A stretch of 36,618 bases of DNA from a virus (taxonomy: Duplodnaviria > Heunggongvirae > Uroviricota > Caudoviricetes), in the IMG/VR virus record IMGVR_UViG_2602041909_000007; one strand, given 5' to 3'. Every line of letters starts with the position of its first letter. Within the stretch, counting starts at the first letter, position 1. A model generated the notes under the pieces. It did not search any database. It was not told the DNA's origin and saw nothing but the letters and a program-made list of their open reading frames with translations. This document shows positions 2,565 to 33,825 of the stretch, piece after piece. A program made the translations under genes and the position numbers.

Positions 2565-4262
2565 TCAGGCGATAAGGTCACAGTATTTTTCGCGCAGGCT
2601 CGTAGCCTGTTGGGCGTCTGCAGCAAGTTCGCTGCTGTTTGTTGGTGCGCCGGTGTTGCTGTGGGTGTGGTTTGCAGTGTGTGTGGCCAGCAACTGAACC
2701 AGATCCAGAATATCAATCAACAACGTCAGCAGATTAAGTCCGGATTTTTCCCGTGAGTCACCGCGACCAATAAATACTGTCGGGGCTGTAAACTCCAGAC
2801 CACCGTCCGCTCGGCATGTTCTGCGACCTCCCACGTTTTCAGTAAGGTCGTGTTCAATCGTGGATGTCGCCCCTTTGAGTTTAGTCAGCAAATCCTGCGC
2901 TACCATCTGGATATGCTCACTGGCTGCGATCGCGTAATGACCGGTAGTAAGGTGCTCTATTTGTCCTGCCATTAGCTTGCTGGTTCCCAGAACGCTGGTT
3001 ATATCGTTTGCCTGTACTGTGGTTGTTCTGGTTGTTGTTGTGCGTTCCTCCTGATCGCTGTTAATGGTTCGCCGGGCTGAATGTTCTCTGATTTGCTGGT
3101 CGGTTTCTCTGTGCCAGCTTCCGTCAGCCGTGACGCGCTGAAACACTTCTGCGCGCTGTTGCTGCAGCTGTTCGCCGGGCTTTACATCAGGCAGGTTATG
3201 GCCAGCGGGTAAGATTTGCCTGATAACGGGTTTGTCCGGACGTCCTTCAATGTTGGATATTTCCACGATGGTGCCTGCCGGTGGGTAGGCAAAACATCCC
3301 GCCTCACTGCCAGCCATGGGGACGGGGAGCGGTACTGCCGGGTAAACGGGCGTGTCGCTTTTATCGTTGCCGTTCTCATCAAGCAACTGCACATCGACGG
3401 CGTAGCGTGGGCGGAAACTGTCGGCCACATCGCCCAGGGTAGTTGGCTCCGTTGGCGCAATGACGCGCGCCAGCCGGGTATGTAGCGTACCGCTGGCCAG
3501 TTCCGGGAACTGTGTTTCCATTTGTCTGCGTAATGGTGATTTGGAAACAGGGTTACCCGTGGCGGTAAGGCGCTCCCATGTCAGGGTCATTTTCTCGTTG
3601 TTGAGGGCTACACGGGTAATGCGCCCGGCCGGTAGGTTCACGCCCGGTCGCACAGTTTCCATAAACATGATGTCGATGCTGTTTCCGCCGCTTTGCCCGA
3701 GTGTGTACTGTTGCGGAATATCCGGCATTGTAATACTGGCAAATCGTGAATCAGCTGCGCTTCCCACAAATACAGAACCGTCCGGCATAGGGTGCCAGAC
3801 GTAATCGCTGATACTGAATGCTCGCCCCAGTTGGCTGAGCAGTTGTGCTCCGCTGCCGCTGTGGGTGATGTAGGGAGTTGGTATACTGGCATAATCCGCA
3901 TCCGGAGTGATAAAAACGATACCGCTTTGTCGCCCCAGATTATCGAGTACCCCCCGCAACGTCGGGTGTTGCATGGAGCAAGGGAAATCAAAATCCAGCA
4001 CAGCAGCCGCTTCACGAATAAAAAGGCGACGTGAGCCATTTTCAGCAGGTTGATCGCGCTCAATGTAGCCGGAGAAATAGCGCCATGCTTCACCGTCACG
4101 GCCGAGATCAATTTGTACCATTGCGCCGGCAAGGCTGTGTTCGGGTGACAGATTGTTAACAGAAATGAAGCCACGACCGGCAGCATTCAGGGTAAGAACA
4201 AGGTTTATATCGGCAATTTCCACCCGTTCGCCATTAATAATACAGCGTTGTATTAATTTCAT
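2565..4262 (-). CDS. Putative baseplate central spike/hub protein (gpV/gpD class, extended, 565 aa)
   Basis: Last gene of tail operon; N-terminus (IINGERVEIADINLVLTLNAAGRGF) resembles OB-fold start of P2 gpV/gpD-type proteins as I recall them; C-terminal HTANHTHS (HxH) resembles metal-binding spike tip. Assignment from memory only. Confidence 0.4.
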   Translation of the reverse strand: MKLIQRCIINGERVEIADINLVLTLNAAGRGFISVNNLSPEHSLAGAMVQIDLGRDGEAWRYFSGYIERDQPAENGSRRLFIREAAAVLDFDFPCSMQHPTLRGVLDNLGRQSGIVFITPDADYASIPTPYITHSGSGAQLLSQLGRAFSISDYVWHPMPDGSVFVGSAADSRFASITMPDIPQQYTLGQSGGNSIDIMFMETVRPGVNLPAGRITRVALNNEKMTLTWERLTATGNPVSKSPLRRQMETQFPELASGTLHTRLARVIAPTEPTTLGDVADSFRPRYAVDVQLLDENGNDKSDTPVYPAVPLPVPMAGSEAGCFAYPPAGTIVEISNIEGRPDKPVIRQILPAGHNLPDVKPGEQLQQQRAEVFQRVTADGSWHRETDQQIREHSARRTINSDQEERTTTTRTTTVQANDITSVLGTSKLMAGQIEHLTTGHYAIAASEHIQMVAQDLLTKLKGATSTIEHDLTENVGGRRTCRADGGLEFTAPTVFIGRGDSREKSGLNLLTLLIDILDLVQLLATHTANHTHSNTGAPTNSSELAADAQQATSLREKYCDLIA

Positions 4263-4834
4263 GTTTTCCCTTCCTTTTTCACGCTCCCGATGCCAATCCA
4301 GTCCAGCCCGGAGCCAATACCATCATTGATATTTTTCCAGAAAGTTTCCTGGGTATTCATTCCTTTATCCGGCGTCAGCTCACTGCCGTTCTGTGTCTGC
4401 TGCTTTGCGATTGTTTTCTGTGAGCCACTGCGTGCCGATGCTTTTTCCGGCACGCTTAATTTTTCCCTGAGAGTAAAGGTGACCTGCCAGTGCATTTTCC
4501 CCTGTTGTTCCGTGGCATCAATGCCACCAGAAAATACCCCCTGTCGCATATTGATTGCCTTCGCGGTAGCGTTGGCAATGCGATACGTTTTTTTAGCTCC
4601 GTTACTTTCTGTTGCCTCCGCAAGCTGAAAAATACGGGTCAGAATAGCTTCATCGTTAAAGTCAATAACCCCCGACACGCGCAGCTCTTTAGCCTTGTTT
4701 CCCTGCTGAGCGCTCGTGGTGCTGGTTGACTGTCCGGACATATCTTTATCCGGTAGTTGCATGGTGGCGCTGACGGTGATGTTGCGCAGCAGAATGGCTT
4801 CCCCGTCAAGCGCAAGGACAATCATCTGGGTCAT
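4259..4834 (-). CDS. Hypothetical tail-associated protein (191 aa)
   Basis: ORF translationally coupled (ATGA-type overlap) to downstream spike/hub gene; position analogous to P2 gpU but no recognisable motif. Confidence 0.35.
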   Translation of the reverse strand: MTQMIVLALDGEAILLRNITVSATMQLPDKDMSGQSTSTTSAQQGNKAKELRVSGVIDFNDEAILTRIFQLAEATESNGAKKTYRIANATAKAINMRQGVFSGGIDATEQQGKMHWQVTFTLREKLSVPEKASARSGSQKTIAKQQTQNGSELTPDKGMNTQETFWKNINDGIGSGLDWIGIGSVKKEGKT

Positions 4835-5555
4835 GTAGTGCTTCCCTTAGTGATGAGAGATCATCGCCGACGAACAGCATCACAGCTGTAAAAACCCACT
4901 CGGGGTGTGGGATGTTTTTTTGTATCAGCGCTGCGGCCTGGCTAAGGACTCCCTTGTAGCAAAAGCGCCACACCGGGCAAAATTTTTGCCGGAGTGCGGC
5001 CTGCTGATCAGCGATTTCCTGTAGAGCTTTATCTCTCGCATTCGCGAACTGACGCAGCTCTGATGACAATGTTTCCGGTGATGTGGCAGCAGGAGTAGCT
5101 GCCTGTGCAATGGTTGCAGCCAGCGACATGCTGCGAGTGGTCTGTGTCGACAGCATTATCGGTTCCGGAAGTGATGTTACCGGTCTGGCGGGGATTTGCA
5201 TTCTGCTGATGGTCAGCGAAAGTTGGCTGGAGATCATACGGGACATTCTCCCTATTTCTGGCAACGGAAATGCACCTGAAAATTGTCTGGCAAGCGATAA
5301 AAACTCAGCAACAGACGGGGCGCAGAATAACATCGCCACGACGTCTTTTTGTGTATTTTCTGTCAGATACGGTAAAAGTGCAGACACTGCATTATCCGGA
5401 CTGAGGTAGCGTCCCGATGGTGTGGTATTCCCTGTATTTACTGACCATGGGTGGAAACAAATCATTGAACTGGTGATGTTTATGGGGTGCGGGTGCAGAA
5501 TTGAGACCGCCCAGTCAGGGCGGTTATTTTTATTGTCTTTCAAATGAATATTCAT
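4806..5555 (-). CDS. Hypothetical protein (249 aa), possibly fiber-associated/chaperone
   Basis: ORF in tail operon between second fiber set and tail hub genes; no motif recognised. Confidence 0.35.
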   Translation of the reverse strand: MNIHLKDNKNNRPDWAVSILHPHPINITSSMICFHPWSVNTGNTTPSGRYLSPDNAVSALLPYLTENTQKDVVAMLFCAPSVAEFLSLARQFSGAFPLPEIGRMSRMISSQLSLTISRMQIPARPVTSLPEPIMLSTQTTRSMSLAATIAQAATPAATSPETLSSELRQFANARDKALQEIADQQAALRQKFCPVWRFCYKGVLSQAAALIQKNIPHPEWVFTAVMLFVGDDLSSLREALHDPDDCPCA

Positions 5556-5587
5556 AGGTGTGTGAGATATTGCTGGTACTTGCGCGG

Positions 5588-6646
5588 TTACTGTCGGGAG
5601 GTTGTGGGTTGGTTATATAACTCCGTTGCAAAAATTATCTCTCCTTCAGTAAATGGGATATCTCCGTCAGGCTGTGTCGTAAAACTCTGTGAGACAGTCG
5701 TCCAGCTGTTTGTGTCAGCCTGCACGTCATTCTCTGTAACTGTTTCTCCTTCATGGCTTCCGCTTTTTACACTCCAGGCCAGGCAGTTATTGGGGGCGTC
5801 CGCACTGCGATAAGTGACAGCCGCCATAACTGCGACCAGATCGCCATTGCTGTTATCTACCGCACCAAACGTAACCTGTGCCGCCTCCGGGGACGGTGAG
5901 AGCATCAGGTATCCGGCATCACTGTCAGAGGTGTTCAGTCCCGTGACGATATCTTTATCCAGCGAGTTTTTCGCACTCCCCCCGGTAAATGCGGTTACCG
6001 GGCTGTATCTGACCTCAATAGCCCCAAGCAGGGCGGGTTCCGCGCTGTTATTTTTTCCGTATGCCACTGTTCCACAGTACATATCACCCAGCATTAACGT
6101 GCCGGATGCACCCGATGAAAAAATATTGTCACCACTACCAATACTCACCTGAATTTTGTCAGTCCGGTCATCTGATACATAAAACGATGTATTTCCAGCT
6201 AATGAGCGGTTGCAGTACAGACTGGCTGAGACATAGCCGTTTTCGTTTCGCGTTGCGAAAATTTCATAGTAATAACTGGCTGCTTCATCAGGATACGGGG
6301 TTGTAAATGAATAGCCATTAATCCTGATGTGGGATGGCGAAGATGAATATTTCTTTCCCGCACTTAATGTCAGACGAAATCCCAGCTGTACAGCTGAGGT
6401 CTTTAAGTCCGGGAGTGTGCTGTACAGTGTGACATATGAGGGTGTCGTAAAAATCAGCCCCGTTCTTTCTACAGTATTTACGGCCTGAGTGCCACGACAG
6501 ACGGATGTTACAGAACCGGACATATCATTGATAAGCGTGACACCGTTTTCGTTCAGTGCTGAAATAATATTTGTTGAATAATAGTTCTCGCACAATCCCT
6601 CATTCGCCGGAATTTGTCGGAACCCTTCCAGATTAATAATATTCAA
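5588..6646 (-). CDS. Hypothetical Ser/Thr/Gly-rich protein (352 aa), possible distal receptor-binding part of second fiber
   Basis: ORF immediately downstream of the second fiber-like gene; S/T/G/N-rich composition typical of beta-rich adhesin-like domains; lower GC than flanking tail genes by eye. Confidence 0.35.
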   Translation of the reverse strand: MNIINLEGFRQIPANEGLCENYYSTNIISALNENGVTLINDMSGSVTSVCRGTQAVNTVERTGLIFTTPSYVTLYSTLPDLKTSAVQLGFRLTLSAGKKYSSSPSHIRINGYSFTTPYPDEAASYYYEIFATRNENGYVSASLYCNRSLAGNTSFYVSDDRTDKIQVSIGSGDNIFSSGASGTLMLGDMYCGTVAYGKNNSAEPALLGAIEVRYSPVTAFTGGSAKNSLDKDIVTGLNTSDSDAGYLMLSPSPEAAQVTFGAVDNSNGDLVAVMAAVTYRSADAPNNCLAWSVKSGSHEGETVTENDVQADTNSWTTVSQSFTTQPDGDIPFTEGEIIFATELYNQPTTSRQ

Positions 6647-21574: not shown

Positions 21575-23362
21575 ATGGCGTATTCTGATGAGGTGATTGC
21601 TGCTGCAAAATCGCTCTATCTGAAAAGGCACACACCAAAAGAAATACAAAAGAAACTCGGACTGAACAGCCCGCGAATTGTTTATTACTGGGCGACAAAG
21701 TTTGAGTGGTACACGCAGCTCAATACGGAAGGTGTGGAGGATGTTATCGCCCGGCGTCTCGCTGTACTGGCGGAGCGTGACCATAAAACGCCGGAAGAAC
21801 ACGATGAACTCGACCGCCTGATTGGTCATCACGTCAAACTAATGTCGGTCAGAAACAAGCACACGGAACGAATGGCTGAGATTGCGCGAATGGGAGTGGA
21901 CATCCCCCAGCCGGGCCGTTATGGAAAAGAAGAACGCGGAGAAAAAGGTGCAGGTAAGAAAGAGCGTCCCCGCAAAACTAATGACGTTTCCGGACTGACT
22001 GCTGAAAGTTTTGAGCCGTTTACGAAGAAGTTGTTTGCTTATCAGTTGCGCCTGCGTGAAAACAAATTCCGCCGTGTACGCAACCTGCTTAAATCCCGTC
22101 AGATTGGGGCGACGTATTACTTCGCGTTTGAGGCGTTTGAAGATGCGGTATTAACCGGCGACACACAGATATTTTTATCGGCATCAAAACGTCAGGCCGA
22201 AGTGTTCCGTACTTATATTGTAAAAATTGCACAAACAGAGTTTGGCATTCCCATTAAAGGCAATCCGGTTAAGTTAAGTAATTTGGCTGAACTGTATTTT
22301 CTGGCGACCAACAGCAACACGGCACAGTCAAACAGCGGCCACCTGTACATTGACGAATACCTGTGGATCCCCGGTTTTCGCCGTCTCAATGAAGTGGCGT
22401 CAGGGATGGCCACCCATAAACACTGGCGCATTACCTATTTCTCCACGCCGTCATCCAAAACACACCAGGGTTATCCGTTCTGGTCTGGCGATGAATGGCG
22501 CAAAGGTGATCCGAAACGAAAAGGGGTTGAGTTTCCGTCCTTTGATGAACTGCGTGATGGCGGGCGCGAATGCCCGGACGGTCAGTGGCGCTATGTGGTT
22601 ACGCTGGAAGATGCCATTGCCGGCGGCTTTAACCTTGCTGACATCAACGAGCTGCGCGAGCGATACAACGAAACAGCGTTCAATATGCTGTTTATGTGTG
22701 TGTTTGTGGATGACAAAGAGAGCGTCTTTAAATTCGATGACCTCGTGCGCTGTGGCGTTGATGTCAGTACGTGGGAGGATTTTCACCCGGAAGAACCCAT
22801 GCCATTTGGTAACCGTGAGGTGTGGGGTGGCTTTGACCCTGCGCGCTCCGGCGATAACGCCACGTTTGTGGTGCTGGCACCGCCGCTGGTTTCGGCAGAA
22901 CGATTCCGCGTGCTGGAAAAACACCACTGGCGCAGTATGTCATTCCAGTTTATGGCAGAGCGTATCCGCAGCATTAAGGCGCGCTATAACATGACATTTA
23001 TCGGCATTGACGTCACCGGTCTTGGCTACGGTGTCTTTGAGCTGGTTCAGGGATTTGCCCGCCGTGAAACAGTGGCCATTCATTACAGCGTTGAATCCAA
23101 AAACCGCCTGGTGATGAAGATGCTGGATCTGATTTACGCCAACCGTATTGAGTGGGATGAAGAAGCCACAGATATTCCGGCATCGTTCCTGGCCATTCGT
23201 CAGGAGTCCACTAACAGTGGCAATAAAGTCACTTTCACCGCCGAACGTAGCGAAAAAACCGGGCACGCAGACATCTTCTTTGCCATAGCTCATGCCGCAA
23301 GTAATGAACCCCTGAACTATAAGCACAAGCGCAAATCAACATGGATCCTGTCAGATGAGTAA
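21575..23362 (+). CDS. P: Terminase large (ATPase) subunit (P2 gpP-like, 595 aa)
   Basis: Size matches P2 gpP (590 aa); divergent from O; followed by portal with overlapping stop/start. Confidence 0.9.
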   Translation: MAYSDEVIAAAKSLYLKRHTPKEIQKKLGLNSPRIVYYWATKFEWYTQLNTEGVEDVIARRLAVLAERDHKTPEEHDELDRLIGHHVKLMSVRNKHTERMAEIARMGVDIPQPGRYGKEERGEKGAGKKERPRKTNDVSGLTAESFEPFTKKLFAYQLRLRENKFRRVRNLLKSRQIGATYYFAFEAFEDAVLTGDTQIFLSASKRQAEVFRTYIVKIAQTEFGIPIKGNPVKLSNLAELYFLATNSNTAQSNSGHLYIDEYLWIPGFRRLNEVASGMATHKHWRITYFSTPSSKTHQGYPFWSGDEWRKGDPKRKGVEFPSFDELRDGGRECPDGQWRYVVTLEDAIAGGFNLADINELRERYNETAFNMLFMCVFVDDKESVFKFDDLVRCGVDVSTWEDFHPEEPMPFGNREVWGGFDPARSGDNATFVVLAPPLVSAERFRVLEKHHWRSMSFQFMAERIRSIKARYNMTFIGIDVTGLGYGVFELVQGFARRETVAIHYSVESKNRLVMKMLDLIYANRIEWDEEATDIPASFLAIRQESTNSGNKVTFTAERSEKTGHADIFFAIAHAASNEPLNYKHKRKSTWILSDE

Positions 23363-24389
23363 AAAGAAAAAATCCCCCGTGCTACACGATGGCGTGGCAA
23401 AAAAAACAGCCAGCAAAATGACGTTTATTGAATTTGGTGACCCGGAACCAGTCGCTGCATGGGGCTGTTATTACGGCTCGCTCTGGGATGGCTATAACGG
23501 CTGGTACACGCCGCCCATTGAGCGCATGGATCTCGCTATGTTGGCCAATATCGCACCGTATCACGGCGCGGTATTGCGTGCGCGCGTCAATATGATCATG
23601 CAGGGTTTTCGGGGGGGCGGTGGTATGACACACGCCGCCATGGCGGCAGCGGTGACCAATCTGCTGATATTCGGGGATATGGGTCTGCTTAAAGTGCGCA
23701 ATGGCTTCGGTCTGGTAGTGCGCCTGCACACACTGCCGTCGCTGTACCTGCGGCGTAACAACGAGGGTGGCACGGTGATTGTGCAGGCGGCACTGGAAGA
23801 TCTCGTTTACCCGCCAGGCGAAGTGGTGTTCGTGGCCATTTATGACCCGCAACAGCAGGTTTACGGTGTACCGGATTATATTCACGGGATGGAATCCGCC
23901 ATGCTGAATGTGGATGCCACCCGCTTTCGCCGCAAGTATTACAAGAACGGCGCACATCTTGGTTATATCCTGTATTCCACTGACCCGGACATGGATCCCG
24001 AGCTCGAGGCGGAATTCCGTAAAAAGATAGAGGCGTCAAAAGGGGCGGGCAATTTTAAATCCATGTTTATCAATATACCGGGCGGAGACAAAGAAGGCGT
24101 TAAGGTGATCCCTATCGGGGATTCAGGTACAAAAGATGAGTTCCTGAATATAAAAACCATCAGTGCCCAGGATCAGCTCGTCGCGCACCGTTTCCCACCC
24201 GGACTTGCCGGCATCATTCCCGCAAATACGGCCGGGCTTGGTGACCCACTGAAATCCCGCGAGGCATATTACAGGGATGAGGTTATCCCGATGCGCCGCC
24301 TGATTATGGAGGGGATCAACAGCGACCCGGATATCAGACGACTGGGGGAGGTGAAATTTATTCTTGATTTTGATGAACCCATGGAGTGA
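23355..24389 (+). CDS. Q: Portal vertex protein (P2 gpQ-like, 344 aa)
   Basis: Exactly the length of P2 gpQ (344 aa); P-then-Q transcription order as in P2. Confidence 0.9.
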   Translation: MSKKKKSPVLHDGVAKKTASKMTFIEFGDPEPVAAWGCYYGSLWDGYNGWYTPPIERMDLAMLANIAPYHGAVLRARVNMIMQGFRGGGGMTHAAMAAAVTNLLIFGDMGLLKVRNGFGLVVRLHTLPSLYLRRNNEGGTVIVQAALEDLVYPPGEVVFVAIYDPQQQVYGVPDYIHGMESAMLNVDATRFRRKYYKNGAHLGYILYSTDPDMDPELEAEFRKKIEASKGAGNFKSMFINIPGGDKEGVKVIPIGDSGTKDEFLNIKTISAQDQLVAHRFPPGLAGIIPANTAGLGDPLKSREAYYRDEVIPMRRLIMEGINSDPDIRRLGEVKFILDFDEPME

Positions 24390-24454
24390 TGTGCGGTATG
24401 GGGAAAGAGCGGGTAAAATCGGTGGCAGTAAAACGCTGTTCCGGGAGGTGGAAA

Positions 24455-24712
24455 ATGCGCAGACAGAAAGCGCGATGTCATTGCTGCGGTGCACATGCAG
24501 TGATTGAGAAAACAGCCTGGAAAACCGATCAGTTTGCTGATGTGTATTACCGTTGCACCCGTCTCGAGTGCGGACATACCTGGGTGATGAATCTGACCTA
24601 CTCGCACACACTGGTGCCCAGCGGGCTGGAGAATGGTGTGTTAAAGCTGTTGATTGAGCGGATGCGTCCGGAAGAAAAACAAATGGCTCTGGAGTTGTTG
24701 CAGGCCGGATAG
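24455..24712 (+). CDS. ogr: Ogr/Delta-family zinc-finger late-gene transcription activator (85 aa)
   Basis: Start at ATG 24455 with GGAGG SD; CHCCGAH…(22 aa)…CTRLECGH matches C-x2-C…C-x4-C zinc finger of P2 Ogr (CPLCQHAAH…CQNVNCSATF). Confidence 0.7.
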   Translation: MRRQKARCHCCGAHAVIEKTAWKTDQFADVYYRCTRLECGHTWVMNLTYSHTLVPSGLENGVLKLLIERMRPEEKQMALELLQAG

Positions 24713-24732
24713 CTGACGCGCTTCGCTTGTCC

Positions 24733-24785
24733 AACCCGGAACGGGCGCACAAAGAATTTGCGCACCCGTTCCGGGTTTTCTTATT
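24733..24785 (+). terminator. Strong rho-independent terminator after ogr
   Basis: Long imperfect palindrome CCCGGAACGGGCGC-acaaagaatt-TGCGCACCCGTTCCGGG followed by TTTTCTTATT. Confidence 0.7.
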
Positions 24786-25140
24786 CAATGGCAGACAACT
24801 GATAATTTGTGTCTTCCTGCAGGCTGGTTAAAGAAATATTATCCAGTGCAGCCAGAATAACGTGCTGTGTATATAATCCGGAACATTTCATTGCCCGGAC
24901 AATATCACCAACACTGTAATTTTCTTTTGTCGGGATATATCCACCACCCGGGCCGCGTGTGGCTTTTACCAGGCTACTTTCCCGTAAATATCTGAATATT
25001 TGCTCCAGATATGACAGTGAAACGGTTTCTTTGCTTAATTGCCGGAGTGAGATTGGCTTTCCGGTGTACTGTTTCACAAATTTAATCATTACCATAACTG
25101 CAACTGATGCACGCTGGCTTCCGGAATTATCTTTCATCAT
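24781..25140 (-). CDS. Rrf2-family transcriptional regulator (120 aa)
   Basis: [29 protein letters not shown] closely matches Rrf2/IscR wHTH signature ([29 protein letters not shown]); start set at ATGATG 25140 with SD; no Cys cluster. Confidence 0.8.
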   Translation of the reverse strand: [119 protein letters not shown]

Positions 25141-25151
25141 GATTACTTCCA

Positions 25152-25439
25152 TTAATGGCATAAATTGATGGGGCGGGTCAGTGAATAAAGAGGCAATACA
25201 TTCCATCCCTTAGAGCGCCAGCTGTCTGCAACATCTTTACTTCTTGTTATCGCCGGTATTCCAATAGGATTATTTGCGTGCATCCATGCCACTGGCTCTG
25301 CTTCCAGTGATGCAAGTGCGATTTCCAGTGCGATTAACATATTGTGATCGTCTTCATCAAGACCGAACGGGATGTCTTCGCGCCACGATTTAAACTCTGT
25401 GATTTTACGTTGTAACCATTCTTTGGTAATGGTGGACAT
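25152..25439 (-). CDS. Hypothetical protein (95 aa)
   Basis: ORF with AGGAG SD before ATG at 25439; Trp-rich C-terminal region; no confident family. Confidence 0.45.
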   Translation of the reverse strand: MSTITKEWLQRKITEFKSWREDIPFGLDEDDHNMLIALEIALASLEAEPVAWMHANNPIGIPAITRSKDVADSWRSKGWNVLPLYSLTRPINLCH

Positions 25440-25453
25440 AGTTACTCCTGTTT

Positions 25454-25768
25454 TCACTTCGGGAAAAACGCCTGAATATTCTTTTTCACCTGCTGCATAT
25501 GGGGGGCGCTGTCTGCTGCTGGTTGCGCCGGTTTTTCAGGCTGTACTGGTAGCGGTGGCATCCGTATTTCGTCTTCTGACCATTCTGCCAGCGAATACGC
25601 CAACGCGGGGGTGCGTTTTATAAGAGCCAGTCCAGCCAGAAAAGCCGCGCGTTGTGCGCGGCTGCGTTCGGAGGCTGGCAGGCTGTCGAGGTAACTGCAC
25701 GCCTCCCGTTCGCTCTTGACGACGGCGGGCTTCAGATAGAAACTTATCCGTCTGGTTGGTGTCGTCAT
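25454..25768 (-). CDS. parR: ParR-like centromere-binding adaptor (104 aa)
   Basis: Immediately downstream of parM homolog; LDSLPASERSRAQRAAFLAGLAL resembles R1 ParR (LDSIPQGERSRLNRAALTAGLAL); start at ATG 25768 with AGGAG SD. Confidence 0.7.
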   Translation of the reverse strand: MTTPTRRISFYLKPAVVKSEREACSYLDSLPASERSRAQRAAFLAGLALIKRTPALAYSLAEWSEDEIRMPPLPVQPEKPAQPAADSAPHMQQVKKNIQAFFPK

Positions 25769-25772
25769 TGAT

Positions 25773-26732
25773 TTACTCCTTGTCCATTGCGTACAGCCCA
25801 TTAACCAGAGCAAACTGTGGCACCCCGTCCGCGATGAAAGTCGCATTAACTCCGCAGGCTTCGCGGATAGCGGGTGCCACAATCTCCGCTCCTCCACCTA
25901 CAACCATCACCCGCCCGTAACCCGAAAAAACCGCCAGCGCGCGGATCACGCGTTGTTTCAGTGTTTCCTCCTTTTCACGAATAACTGCCATCAGGCTGGC
26001 GTAATGCGCGTCATTGTGGATGTGCTGGCGCAGCCAGGCTTCATCGTGGCGATGTTCGATAATGGTATTGGCGATGTGGTGACTGGTGCGCATACCGTTG
26101 GTGGCCATCACCGACAGCACGGCATCGGCCATCAGAGAAACGCCTACGTGTGGATCGCAAAACACCTGGCTGATACCTGCCAGTTGCCCCTGAACCTTTG
26201 CCACATCCAGCGTGGTTCCGCCCAAATCCACAATCAGCAGGGATTCAAACGGACTCATGTCAGCCAGTGCCTTAAAACCAGCCGGAATGGATTCAGGCAT
26301 AACCCGCACGTTACGGATAGTGAATGCCTCGCCGTTCTGGTACTCCACCGGGCGCATAACGTTCGCTTTTTTGCGGTTGATGTTGGCCATGTCCGGCTGT
26401 GCGTTTGTGTCGAAATACTCGCTCAGTGGCAGGGTAACAACCACATCCACTTCCTGTGGTGTGATGCCTGATTTGACCAGCGCGTGGTGAATGGCGATTA
26501 CATTCACATCGCTGTACTGGTATTGCGTGTCGGTCGTCTGGACAAAGCGATCGCTGACCGGATCAAAACCATAGCGCACGCCATCAAGCATGTAGTTCGC
26601 GGGCTGCGTGCCACCGAACGGCGCAGACCATTCCGACTTGAAGCTGTTCGGGCTGATGGCGTTGCGGCGTTCGCCGTTCTCAGTCCATGCCAGCTTGATG
26701 TTGGTGGAGCCGTCGTCGATACAAATTTTCAT
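25773..26732 (-). CDS. parM: ParM/StbA-family actin-like segregation ATPase (319 aa)
   Basis: Near-colinear similarity to plasmid R1 ParM as recalled: IDDGSTNIKL, ISPNSFK, YSDVNV.A.HHAL, VMPESIPAG, DLGGTTLD, GGGAE, LVNG.Y. Confidence 0.9.
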   Translation of the reverse strand: MKICIDDGSTNIKLAWTENGERRNAISPNSFKSEWSAPFGGTQPANYMLDGVRYGFDPVSDRFVQTTDTQYQYSDVNVIAIHHALVKSGITPQEVDVVVTLPLSEYFDTNAQPDMANINRKKANVMRPVEYQNGEAFTIRNVRVMPESIPAGFKALADMSPFESLLIVDLGGTTLDVAKVQGQLAGISQVFCDPHVGVSLMADAVLSVMATNGMRTSHHIANTIIEHRHDEAWLRQHIHNDAHYASLMAVIREKEETLKQRVIRALAVFSGYGRVMVVGGGAEIVAPAIREACGVNATFIADGVPQFALVNGLYAMDKE

Positions 26733-26763
26733 GTCGCTTTTCCTTATGTTGATTAATTAATCG

Positions 26764-26876
26764 TTTACGGGATTTTTAAATCCCGTTTTCGCCTGTTTTG
26801 TGCGCGCTTCATATATCGCGGCGCGTTTTTTGCTCATTTACGGGATTTGTGAATCCCGTTTCTGTCTGTTTTTTGT
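26764..26876. repeat. Two ~38-bp direct repeats each containing palindrome ACGGGATTT(n)AAATCCCGT; candidate parC-like centromere / ParR binding sites
   Basis: tttacgggatttttaaatcccgtttt (26764-26789) and tttacgggatttgtgaatcccgtttc (26838-26863); first copy is intergenic upstream of parM, second lies in the last ~20 codons of the gpA-like ORF. Confidence 0.4.
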
Positions 26877-29631
26877 TTCTACTGGTCAGGCCACCCCGCA
26901 GCAGGTCTGCTTTGCGGCGGGCGCGTTCAGTTGTTTCACTGATTCTCTGTGCGTGCTCTGCGTCACGGATGGCGCGCAGCATGTCAGAAAGCACGGTAAC
27001 GGGGGTTTTCATGGTGTTCTGGTCCTGCTGAAGTGTGGATGCCAGACGTGCGGCGGCTTCGGGGTCTGATGCCCCCAGCTGTGCCAGATAGCTGGCGACC
27101 GGGTTATGGCGGATCTCCGTGCTGCTTACGCCGTGATTACGGCTCAGGTGCTGCCAGAGCTGCGTGATTCGGCTGTCCGGGCGGGTATCCGGTTTGCGTA
27201 CAATTTCAAATCCCTGTGGTGCAATGATGCTGCCGTCAACGTACAGGCTGCCGCCCCGTAACAGGTGCTGCATCTGCTGTTCACCGATATGCAGGCCGAG
27301 AGATTCGGCAGATTCCCGCCATTCTTTAGCGAGTAATTCGTGGTTATCAGGCAAAGGCCGTGGCTGTTTGCGGCTCTGTGTCCAGTTCTGCATTTCATCA
27401 CTGCTGTTTTTTGCCTGCTTGTCACGCAGCGAACGCATCAGAGCCCGGCGTTCGTGCCGTTTCAGTGAGCGCATCCATTCGTTCACTTCAACGCCGTCAG
27501 GGAGCTGCGGCCACGGTGCTGGCCGTTCTTTCGGCTGTTCTGTCCCGTTGTTGTCCGTTTCCTGTACACGGGGACAGTTATTGCCACGAGTCCAAGGGGC
27601 GGCAGGGCCGCCCTGAAGGTCAAAACCATTTTCGCGGGCGCTGTCTTCCGCTTCCGGTTTACGTCTTACCAGCTTCCAGTTATCCGGATGTGTGCACACA
27701 CGGGAAGACTCCCCGATGAGTGGTGACCAGATCCCGTAAATCTGTACGCTCTGTTCGCCGTAATCGTTCAGCTCATCTGCGAGGTCGTAGGCGGTGCGAA
27801 TCAGGTAGTCTTTGCGTGGAACAAGTACGCCGCCCTGTTTTTCAATGTAGGAGGCAAAACACCCGGCATCAGCGGCAGCGAGCACTGCATCCATTGCGTC
27901 ATCCTTCAGCCGTTGCGGGCCTTCCGGGTTGCGTGCCATCTGGCTGGCAAGGCGGCGCAGTTCACGCCACACCTGACGGGAGGGGATGCCAAAGAACTGG
28001 AACTGGCGGACCCGGTGAAGGCGCGCCCAGCCGATGGCGCGCTCCACGCTCTCGGCCATTGATTTTCCGGTTTCGTGGTCAACGCGTGGCTTGCCCGTTT
28101 TCGGGTCGATACCATCCACGGCGCGGCTGTCCAGGTTCTTTCCGATGTAGGTGGCGATGTAGCTGGTTGGCGTGCCTTTTGAGCCGTCGACGTACTCCGC
28201 TTTAAAACGCGGAGTTATGTCATCGCCCAGCTCGTGGCGGTCTTCCTGAATGGCAATATCGCAGACGTGGGACACGATGGTTTCAATCTCGTCCGGATGT
28301 GCAAAGACCATCATATGCCAGTGCACAGTGCCGTCATGGTGAGGCTCCACCGTGCGGATGCCATACCAGCGAAGACCGTCGCGGTTCAGTTTTTTGCGGA
28401 CCGCCGCAAAAAACGTGTTAACCAGGTAATCGCTGGAGTCGCGCATGGTGGCCCCGTTCCATTTGGGATTCGGATGACCGTTCTCCGTTGTTGCGTGGTA
28501 TTTTGACGGGCAGGTGACAGTCAGAAACACCGCTCTGTCGCCACGGGCTTCGGCCAGAAGTTCCAGCCCCTTCATGGTGGCCATCATTTCTGCCTTACGG
28601 TGAACCGGGTTACTTACTCCCGCGTAATACACCGTCTCGAGATCAATCGTGAACCCGTCTTCATTTTCCAGCATGAAACTTTTCAGGAAATCGCGTGTTT
28701 TCTCGCGCTGTGCGCGAAACTCGCTTAATGCGTCCTGGCTCAGATAGGGCGATGTTTTTCTGGAAACCAGACAGGCGGCGCGGAGTTGTTCTTCTCTCCA
28801 CTCGCAACGTAACAGCCACAGTTTGCGTTTCCACCATTCCGCACAGGTCAGGCGAAGGACTGCGCCCGGCAGCAGCTCCGTGTCCGGTTCGTTCCTCCGG
28901 TCTTTATCTGTTGTCAGTGCGTCATAATGTGGAGGCATGATGTGCAGGTGTAACGCCATGCGGGCCAGCATCTGATACGTCTTCAGCGTTACATCCATGG
29001 TCAGTTCGCCATCGGTCGCGCCAAAGCCATCGCAGAGTTTTTCGAAGGTGCTGCTGAACATCGCCGCCGTCATGGTGGCCAGCGTCTGTATCTGGTGTTT
29101 GTTGAGCTGCGGCAGGTAAAGCAAATCGTCCAGGCGTTCGCGTCCGGCAAGGGAGCGATAACCCGGTGTCAGCCAGCGTCCGTCAGTGCGATCCAGACGT
29201 TCGAATATTTTGCGCAGGGTTCCGCGTGCATAGCGTTCCGCCTGCCAGCTCTTTTTGCCTTTCCGGCGATCGGCTTCCTGTTTTTTGCGCAGGAAGGAGA
29301 GGTGGCGAATAAGCGGATCGCGCAGATAGGACGGCAGCAGGCGCAGCGAGGCCATGGCTTCATCCACCGCGCCGCGTGCCTGTTTTCTGGCGTCTCCTGC
29401 CAGTGTGATGGTTTTGTCCTGTTTTTCCTGTGCATCCAGGCTTTTATTAATCAGGTTGCCCAGCGGCGTGGCGGAGAACGCCGCATCAGCCTTTTCCTGT
29501 CGGCGCTCGTTCTCTGCCCGGTAGGCATCCAGCCAGGAGGAAAGCGCGGATTCAGGTGCGGGGATCCCCGTTCCTTCACGCCCCACTGCGTGGCGCGGTT
29601 GTTGCCAGTCCCTGATGTACTCTGTCGTCAT
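26809..29631 (-). CDS. A: Replication initiation endonuclease (P2 gpA-like HUH rolling-circle initiator, 940 aa)
   Basis: HUH-type motif TVHWHMMVF and catalytic-Tyr region TSYIATYIGKNLD; position in early operon upstream of head genes as in P2; ~180 aa longer than P2 gpA. Confidence 0.8.
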   Translation of the reverse strand: MTTEYIRDWQQPRHAVGREGTGIPAPESALSSWLDAYRAENERRQEKADAAFSATPLGNLINKSLDAQEKQDKTITLAGDARKQARGAVDEAMASLRLLPSYLRDPLIRHLSFLRKKQEADRRKGKKSWQAERYARGTLRKIFERLDRTDGRWLTPGYRSLAGRERLDDLLYLPQLNKHQIQTLATMTAAMFSSTFEKLCDGFGATDGELTMDVTLKTYQMLARMALHLHIMPPHYDALTTDKDRRNEPDTELLPGAVLRLTCAEWWKRKLWLLRCEWREEQLRAACLVSRKTSPYLSQDALSEFRAQREKTRDFLKSFMLENEDGFTIDLETVYYAGVSNPVHRKAEMMATMKGLELLAEARGDRAVFLTVTCPSKYHATTENGHPNPKWNGATMRDSSDYLVNTFFAAVRKKLNRDGLRWYGIRTVEPHHDGTVHWHMMVFAHPDEIETIVSHVCDIAIQEDRHELGDDITPRFKAEYVDGSKGTPTSYIATYIGKNLDSRAVDGIDPKTGKPRVDHETGKSMAESVERAIGWARLHRVRQFQFFGIPSRQVWRELRRLASQMARNPEGPQRLKDDAMDAVLAAADAGCFASYIEKQGGVLVPRKDYLIRTAYDLADELNDYGEQSVQIYGIWSPLIGESSRVCTHPDNWKLVRRKPEAEDSARENGFDLQGGPAAPWTRGNNCPRVQETDNNGTEQPKERPAPWPQLPDGVEVNEWMRSLKRHERRALMRSLRDKQAKNSSDEMQNWTQSRKQPRPLPDNHELLAKEWRESAESLGLHIGEQQMQHLLRGGSLYVDGSIIAPQGFEIVRKPDTRPDSRITQLWQHLSRNHGVSSTEIRHNPVASYLAQLGASDPEAAARLASTLQQDQNTMKTPVTVLSDMLRAIRDAEHAQRISETTERARRKADLLRGGLTSRNKKQTETGFTNPVNEQKTRRDI

Positions 29632-33357: not shown

Positions 33358-33825
33358 ATGGAATTAGATGCTTTTGTGTGTCTGCGAATTTTTGAAAAAC
33401 ACTGCGAGCGAGTTGCTGAATCCTATCGTGATGTGCTGGATAAAGAAACAGCCAACTCAGCATTTGTTGCTACTCGAGCATTAATTCTCCTTAAATTGGA
33501 TTTGCTACTTGTCGAGTATCGAAGAAATATTGATTCCAAGTGTGTAGTCCTCTTCGGAAAAAATGTGCTTTATCATTATCTTTTCACCCAAAAGGGTGTT
33601 TCATTGTCTGATGCCAAAAATATGTGTCTCCATGACATACTTATTGTTCTCTGGAATGATATTAATGCATATGTAATACCAGAGCATGTATCCGAGCGTA
33701 TCCAGATTCTTTATAAGCACGAGCTCTCATCTCCAATGCCTGATTTAAGTTATGAAGATGAAAGTCTGTTGCACTTTAAGGATTCTGCTTGGGATTTTTA
33801 TCCTGCCGATACACGACTGAATTAA
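33358..33825 (+). CDS. Hypothetical AT-rich accessory protein (155 aa), antisense-oriented relative to early operon
   Basis: Strong AAGGAG SD 7 nt upstream of ATG 33358; markedly AT-rich; convergent with and overlapping 3' end of 33776..34384. Confidence 0.55.
   Translation: MELDAFVCLRIFEKHCERVAESYRDVLDKETANSAFVATRALILLKLDLLLVEYRRNIDSKCVVLFGKNVLYHYLFTQKGVSLSDAKNMCLHDILIVLWNDINAYVIPEHVSERIQILYKHELSSPMPDLSYEDESLLHFKDSAWDFYPADTRLN

Follow-up and report, generated by a model that had tools for sequence, protein, structure and literature searches.

The described protein closest to the one treated here is the regulator IscR of E. coli, whose [2Fe-2S] cluster is held by three conserved cysteines at positions 92, 98 and 104, and which in an apo-locked form (C92A/C98A/C104A) still binds type-2 sites (PMC4055776). 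IscR reads the type-2 site through major-groove contacts of Ser40, Glu43 and Gln44, which determine the specificity; Glu43 contacts CC dinucleotides and sets type-1 versus type-2 specificity (PMC5411485). The closest described place is a hotspot of P2 genomes that lies near cos, with gpA on one side and the portal gene on the other; in P2 it holds old and tin, and 1,650 arrangements of it were counted in 18,150 occurrences (Rousset et al. 2022, PMC9122126). Here we describe rrf2, the gene for a miniature Rrf2 protein (mini-Rrf2) lying in this hotspot in the IMG/VR virus record IMGVR_UViG_2602041909_000007, a stretch of 36,618 nucleotides that is called the window below and is a P2-family prophage of E. 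coli, P88 type (Xuanwuvirus, Peduoviridae). We suggest, tentatively and as something short of probable, that its product might be an IscR-type DNA binder that needs no iron-sulfur (Fe-S) cluster, is expressed early and acts at host promoters.

Neither the gene nor the arrangement is new. RefSeq already names the gene, as 141 amino acids from an ATG at 25206 that would overlap the upstream gene, orf95, by 55 nt, and the exact orf95-rrf2 arrangement is found in Table S5A of Rousset et al. (2022, PMC9122126), without a reported test. We found no study of phage-encoded Rrf2 or IscR proteins in the literature.

With apo-IscR of E. coli (PDB 4HF0, 4HF1, 4CHU) the phage protein shares the Rrf2 winged helix-turn-helix, including identical SLSYLEQ and RGPGGGY motifs, and it would likewise act without a cluster. 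It differs in being 119 amino acids long against 162, in an overall identity of 31%, and in its setting, being phage-borne and neither the first gene of an isc/suf operon nor upstream of iscSUA. CymR of B. subtilis and S. aureus is an Rrf2 protein that works without an Fe-S cluster and needs CysK as a partner. Its structures (PDB 2Y75, 3T8R) match that predicted for the rrf2 product, but CymR has a full-length dimerisation helix and the phage protein has not. The same truncated architecture and the same motifs are found in short proteins of phrog_24072, at 37-51% identity, for example in Citrobacter phage Chris1 (UOL51134.1, annotated 'iron-sulfur cluster regulator') and Klebsiella phage Kp4865-4. 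Such relatives in Rac-like prophages lie between a DUF1482 gene and recE, whereas the rrf2 of the window is hotspot cargo of a P2-family phage. It occupies the slot of old, tin and other hotspot cargo and, like these, is present or absent among near-identical phages, but it has no homology to old or tin and neither a nuclease nor an ATPase domain.

A truncated Rrf2 protein and its family

The gene, and the start codons that lie upstream in its frame, are as follows.

24781-25140, minus strand: mini-Rrf2 gene (rrf2), 119 amino acids, stop codon TAA at 24781-24783, Pfam PF02082
25141-25206, minus strand: stretch with the upstream in-frame ATGs of rrf2, at 25206 (start of the RefSeq form of 141 amino acids), 25161 and 25152

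A first-pass annotation, made from the letters of the DNA, had placed two genes at 24781-25439, an interval that rrf2 and orf95, both on the minus strand, fill exactly, and had described the first as a textbook Rrf2 regulator without an Fe-S cysteine cluster, to be checked with a profile search. In this search the product matches PF02082 with 50.1 bits against a gathering score of 30 (E = 3.9e-13), and both motifs quoted by the annotation are present, SLSYLEQ in the recognition helix and RGPGGGY in the wing. Because the only cysteine, C86, is not conserved in the family, there is no cysteine cluster. Family membership and the lack of Fe-S ligands were thus correctly read, and so was the winged-helix half of the "textbook" protein, which is the only half that the match spans (positions 2-87 of the 132 in the profile). 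The rest of that description goes too far, as the product lacks the cysteine loop as well as half of the dimerisation helix and stays below the cut-offs of the NCBIfam model rrf2_super (52.8 against 73.3) and of both IscR models (TIGR02010, the best NCBIfam match, 58.6 bits against 207.55; the equivalog PRK10857, 45.6 against 275). The NCBIfam model of CymR gives 48.5 bits against a cut-off of 195. A strong match is obtained with phrog_24072 (E = 2e-47), a family that has no annotated function.

The deletion, about 26 residues in an alignment with 38 canonical relatives, takes out the cysteine-rich cluster loop and the N-terminal half of the dimerisation helix, and with this half the near-invariant LW motif. 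An AlphaFold2 model of the product (predicted local distance difference test, pLDDT, 82.5) has an 8-residue helix (93-100) where the canonical proteins have the long dimerisation helix, so that the full-length Rrf2 domain is not there. What is kept is the C-terminal half of this helix and the next helix, with LxxxLDNIxLxxL where IscR has LxxFLNNITLxxL. The protein is basic (pI 9.3). In a Foldseek search with the model the top match is apo-IscR (4hf0_A, TM score 0.72), followed by IscR-DNA complexes, CymR, RsrR and NsrR, and each of the 36 best matches in the PDB is either an Rrf2-family structure or a putative regulator that is uncharacterised. By sequence, too, the nearest solved structures are entries of E. 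coli IscR.

The residues that touch DNA in IscR have been kept. In an alignment of 50 sequences, E. coli IscR and 49 members of the short family, the equivalents of IscR S38, S40, Y41, L42 and E43 are invariant, and at those of Q44 and R59 conservation is 90% or more. As counterparts of the contact residues the rrf2 product has S43 and E46, both invariant, and Q47 and the wing arginine R62, both at least 90% conserved. No cysteine is conserved in this alignment, and a C-terminal motif, PVLxAL(D/E)xV, is.

A profile built from four of the short proteins finds approximately 75 clusters (at 90% identity) of proteins of 104-124 amino acids with scores of 100-171 bits, while canonical IscR-like proteins of 150-177 amino acids score at most 92 bits with the same profile. 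An exhaustive HMMER search of 1.84 billion representatives in a library at 50% identity gave some 15-20 short representatives that match over their full length. The approximately 75 clusters come from Citrobacter, Klebsiella, Kluyvera, Enterobacter, Leclercia, Salmonella and E. coli. In a comparison of seven near-identical copies of rrf2 the variable codons are five synonymous and two nonsynonymous, and the latter are both in the disordered tail. Since the short form is kept in about 75 clusters, matches over its full length, has a conserved C-terminal motif and varies only synonymously in its folded part, it is a maintained architecture, and the idea of a decayed IscR pseudogene was rejected. 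Judged by these comparisons, rrf2 is a real, intact and selected gene, and it belongs to an uncharacterised, phage-specific short family rather than to the host-type global regulators with which the first-pass annotation had grouped it.

Most members of the family lie in the early-left operon of Rac-like or lambdoid prophages of Enterobacteriaceae. The order in the Rac-like prophages, which are integrated beside icd, is a cI-type repressor gene, further genes, a DUF1482 gene, mini-Rrf2, a RecE-type exonuclease gene, xis and int, and it is shared by Citrobacter phage Chris1, Klebsiella phage Kp4865-4 and circular Klebsiella phage genomes of 50-70 kb that are filed as plasmids. Other members adjoin replication genes or sit between a Band_7 gene and an integrase gene, and no partner gene is conserved across the loci. 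In the Rac prophage of E. coli K-12 the gene racC lies between ydaE and recE, the position of mini-Rrf2 in the Rac-like prophages of other enterobacteria; RacC was tried as a homologue of mini-Rrf2 and rejected (hhalign probability 0.2%).

The start of rrf2 is, as far as the sequences can tell, the ATG at 25140 and not the one at 25206. This choice is made because the N-termini of the family, the Shine-Dalgarno sequence GGAAG (25150-25146, 5 nt before the ATG) and a protein of 119 amino acids in NCBI nr agree on it. The GGAAG lies in the 11-nt spacer between orf95 and rrf2, which is also part of the stretch 25141-25206, and the 22 additional N-terminal amino acids of the RefSeq form are not present in any member of the family. 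Inside the coding sequence, at 24988-25012, there is a near-perfect inverted repeat, ATATCTG-N11-CAGATAT, in the codons for YLEQIFRYL, which is probably coincidental.

Cargo between gpA and the portal gene

The surroundings of rrf2 in the window consist of the following features.

23355-24389: portal gene, right anchor of the slot, followed by ogr
24455-24712, plus strand: ogr, gene of a zinc-finger late activator (Pfam Ogr_Delta), right anchor together with the portal gene
24733-24777, both strands: hairpin, a 45-nt palindrome, the fixed right edge of the variable cargo
25152-25439, minus strand: orf95, 95 amino acids, acidic, a two-module mosaic early protein of Ead/Ea22/Eaa type
25454-25768, minus strand: parR (Pfam Plasmid_stab_B)
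25773-26732, minus strand: parM (Pfam StbA), conserved left anchor of the slot
26809-29631, minus strand: gpA, replication endonuclease of 940 amino acids

The host gene serS forms the left flank of the prophage, its right end has genes for an integrase and a Cox-type protein, and the parM-parR segment is 88-96% identical to phage P88 and its relatives. With orf95 and rrf2 situated between gpA and the portal gene, the locus has the location by which the hotspot is defined (PMC9122126). The first-pass annotation had seen a moderately AT-rich segment between parR and the terminator of ogr and had taken it for the variable tin/old slot of P2-like genomes, and both observations hold. The content of guanine plus cytosine (GC) is 41.7% in rrf2 and 44.4% in orf95 against 52-58% in the flanking genes, and at third codon positions it is 0.39 and 0.43 against 0.58-0.66.

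For comparison we used 80 viral contigs with a ParM at least 99% identical to that of the window, of which 61 also have the portal gene. These 61 loci hold 28 different slot contents, of 1.0-4.2 kb, and six of the loci have orf95 together with rrf2. Several of the other contents are known defence genes. IetA/IetS genes are found in the slots of loci L009-L011, L045 and L064, AbiLi/AbiLii-like genes in L017 and L085, RmrA-like genes plus PIN in L020 and L027, and a PDC-M11A gene in L084; the remaining contents include Fic/DOC with a putative Phd-type antitoxin, Gp49 with a helix-turn-helix protein, a PIN protein, DUF4760 proteins and ClpX-zinc-finger proteins. In two loci with the same portal/ogr module (L058, L059) the space between parR and ogr is occupied by a protein of 128 amino acids without a Pfam match and a 125-amino-acid winged helix-turn-helix protein similar to HVO_A0114/MarR, a second case of a small protein of this fold as hotspot cargo.

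Homology with differently loaded loci resumes on one side exactly at the stop codon of rrf2 and the hairpin (24785), and on the other side between 25283, in the middle of orf95, and 25616, in the middle of parR. The unique part of the cargo is therefore rrf2, which this P88-like prophage carries in its gpA-portal hotspot as an AT-rich cargo of one gene. Of 5426 complete E. coli genomes, 1303 have the parM-type prophage and 45 have the rrf2 cargo, which is always chromosomal and 95-100% identical; in 44 of these genomes the identity is at least 99%.

The proteins of the partition genes behave differently from each other. ParR is only 52-100% identical in the 80 contigs selected for a ParM of at least 99% identity, and homology mostly stops in the middle of parR, from which it follows that ParR is split, its N-terminal half remaining with parM and its C-terminal half (below approximately 25616) moving with the cargo. 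The minus strand has two palindromes of 20 bp, at 26859-26840 (ACGGGATTcACAAATCCCGT) and 26786-26767 (ACGGGATTtAAAAATCCCGT), with a distance of 73 bp; the first falls within the 3' end of gpA, the second shortly before parM. All eight relatives aligned across this region conserve it, with or without rrf2, and the palindromes are candidate ParR (parC) sites.

On the minus strand a tightly packed run of genes leads leftward from cox to gpA, parM, parR, orf95, rrf2 and the hairpin, an order taken from the annotation of a close relative and from the right-hand genes of the window itself. A spacer of 14 nt separates orf95 from parR and one of 11 nt separates rrf2 from orf95, and rrf2 and orf95 are the last two genes of an early transcription unit of about 10 kb. 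The hairpin is a 21-bp stem on this strand, directly after the stop codon of rrf2, with a folding z of -5.8. On the plus strand its folding z is -4.8 and it is followed by TTTTCTTATT, and thus it is also the T-tract terminator of the convergent ogr. An Rfam scan of 23000-28000 at E <= 1 gave a single match, at chance level. By analogy with P2, cos would be expected between the portal side and the hotspot, where the only intergenic space is the 68 bp (24713-24780) that hold the hairpin; the cos sequence of P2 had no match with up to three mismatches, and the site was not located.

Possible roles of the mini-Rrf2 protein

As we would tentatively reconstruct it, the product is a stand-alone, basic DNA-binding protein, independent of an Fe-S cluster and descended from an Rrf2 regulator of IscR type. 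Most likely the protein is made from the distal part of the leftward early transcript, which would end at the strong hairpin. It would bind type-2-like half-sites of IscR, with their CC, whatever the Fe-S status of the cell, and act on host promoters, or compete with IscR there, while the early genes of the phage are on. Such binding, whatever the Fe-S status, is the property of apo-IscR. In other phages mini-Rrf2 is always found among early accessory genes, which speaks for this reconstruction.

There are several points that weigh against it. We infer DNA binding, the recognised sequence, the timing of expression and the host promoters as targets from sequence, model and gene order; for the timing it is gene order only, as no promoter-like site was found upstream of rrf2, and the sole candidate, at 25429-25402, is within chance expectation. 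The glutamate-glutamine pair of the recognition helix is shared by CymR-type proteins, and this makes the suggested specificity soft. With a dimerisation helix of only about 8 residues in the model, the dimer geometry, and with it the spacing of the sites, may differ from that of IscR, or the protein may not dimerise. Finally, a search for palindromes of the kind named by the first-pass annotation gave no convincing IscR-type sites in the window. The type-2 core CCNYA-N7-TRNGG (consensus from PMC4055776) occurs once against 1.55 expected, in a structural gene, and when the same half-sites were tried with spacings of 0-15 spacing 10 alone gave more matches than the shuffles (7 against 1.7), an excess that was not taken as evidence, being one of 16 tests with the six sites listed lying in coding sequence. 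Type-1 and long type-2 consensus sequences gave at best 20/25 at 33809 and 21/24 at 24521, inside ogr, and were dropped as they are not in promoter regions.

In its widest form the proposal would be that two unrelated lineages, the Rac-like lambdoids and the P88-like relatives of P2, carry a miniaturised and permanently cluster-free IscR, which mimics or jams the apo-IscR signal of the host and so takes control of Fe-S biogenesis and the oxidative-stress programme, with suf, isc, hya and further targets of IscR, in early development, independently of the real Fe-S status. We consider this rather unlikely. Should mini-Rrf2 indeed read IscR sites in the absence of a cluster, phages would have in it a small, naturally "apo-locked" IscR with which to override a global regulator of their host. 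A host takeover factor of this type would be new, and it would be useful as a tool for separating the functions of apo-IscR from those of holo-IscR, and the gpA-portal hotspot of P2 would carry regulators besides defence systems.

The first-pass annotation had thought of lysogenic conversion, or of control over an adjacent accessory function. The anatomy of the locus does not support the former, given that there is no promoter-like site upstream and that the two genes end an early transcription unit, and no accessory function is adjacent for the latter. Of the marks of a moron, the terminator hairpin and the low GC are there, and the promoter-like site upstream of rrf2 was not found; a promoter close to parM may give a low expression of rrf2 in the lysogen.

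A role in defence or superinfection exclusion has to be weighed against this background. Mini-Rrf2, alone or with the orf95 product, would protect the lysogen in the manner of P2 old and tin, for instance by binding and silencing incoming phage DNA, and it would then be a very small defence gene without an effector. The gene sits in a defence hotspot, its arrangement is among the hotspot contents of Table S5A (PMC9122126), it is AT-rich like other hotspot cargo, and the relatives with near-identical ParM have IetAS, AbiL-like, RmrA-like, PDC-M11A, Fic/Phd, Gp49/HTH and PIN genes in the same slot. However, hotspot genes are not all defensive, and most of the family is found in the early-left operon of lambdoid phages and not in defence islands. 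PADLOC matched no model to the proteins of rrf2, orf95 and parR, there is no effector domain, and constitutive expression in the lysogen would need a promoter of its own. We hold a defensive role to be unlikely, albeit not far-fetched.

Mini-Rrf2 could also be a poison subunit or decoy for the host IscR, forming heterodimers or occupying IscR sites without any output, and thus blunting the Fe-S and oxidative-stress response during phage growth. The conserved C-terminal half of the dimerisation helix, with the helix that follows, would suit such a role, and the early-left neighbours of mini-Rrf2 occupy the positions of kilR and recE in the Rac prophage of K-12. Lambdoid early-left genes typically inhibit host proteins. 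But the dimerisation helix has lost its first half, the LW motif is gone, and a pure poison subunit would have no need for the DNA-contact residues, which are invariant; we find this role quite doubtful.

A regulator directed at the phage itself, which would bind a phage operator and tune early or late transcription, partition or lysogeny and leave host genes untouched, seems improbable to us in much the same way. Small early regulators are common in phages, and here several temperate phages that are not related to each other have a gene for a DNA-binding fold in their early operons. Yet the regulatory circuits of these phages are unrelated, P2-type here and lambdoid elsewhere, and the gene is dispensable in P88-like phages, as the figures of 45 genomes with the cargo and 1303 with the prophage type tell. 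Nor is any IscR-like palindrome enriched in the window, and the palindromes upstream of parM are conserved regardless of whether rrf2 is there.

An operon with two small genes at a distance of 11 nt, of which one encodes a DNA-binding protein, in a slot where relatives have toxin-antitoxin modules, might suggest a pair with orf95 as the toxin and the winged-helix protein as the antitoxin, but this is very hard to believe and was rejected, as the two genes are not linked elsewhere (both are widespread without the other and have other neighbours), and the orf95 product has no toxin-like domain or fold match and its gene 0 synonymous against 3 nonsynonymous variable codons.

The neighbour orf95 and other parts of the prophage

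The gene orf95 begins with an ATG at 25439, 5 nt after an AGGAG. The profile search of this 95-amino-acid neighbour, also proposed by the first-pass annotation, succeeded in part, with matches to two PHROG families of unknown function, phrog_660 and phrog_60, and none in Pfam, including the Ead/Ea22-like PF13935. The homologues are abundant lambdoid proteins named Eaa, DUF551-containing or, wrongly, valyl-tRNA synthetase, and they have the N-terminal helical module and the ALASLEAEPVAW junction in common with orf95. While this module is shared with Ead/Ea22/Eaa proteins, the C-terminal module is a separate small domain, which is also part of a protein of 86 amino acids. In the loci L024 and L077 the N-terminal module opens the first gene of the slot and the C-terminal module lies within the separate 86-amino-acid gene. 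To judge from these sequences, orf95 is a recombinant (25198-25439) of two modules that are found apart in other loci. An AlphaFold2 model (pLDDT 84) has a helical hairpin and a small beta-beta-alpha-beta domain, without a significant fold match in the PDB. The variable codons given above come from near-identical copies and, few as they are, give no sign of constraint. Genes of the orf95 type are the first gene of the slot in many other configurations and are abundant without rrf2, and genes of the rrf2 type also occur without orf95, which is a separate mosaic early gene and not a functional partner of rrf2.

The best RefSeq match of the window, NZ_CP087377, is a different copy of the prophage. 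It is about 99% identical over 1525-30617 of the window, beyond which the early region of the window differs or is only 86-91% alike, and it adjoins pdxB where the window adjoins serS; the parts that set the window apart are 1-1293 and the stretch beyond 30617. At the tail end of the prophage, at 2565-6646 on the minus strand, there are four genes annotated as hypothetical. PADLOC found no match for their proteins, one of which matches the baseplate protein HP1_ORF34, and the four genes are probably structural, for tail or baseplate, and not a second defence locus.

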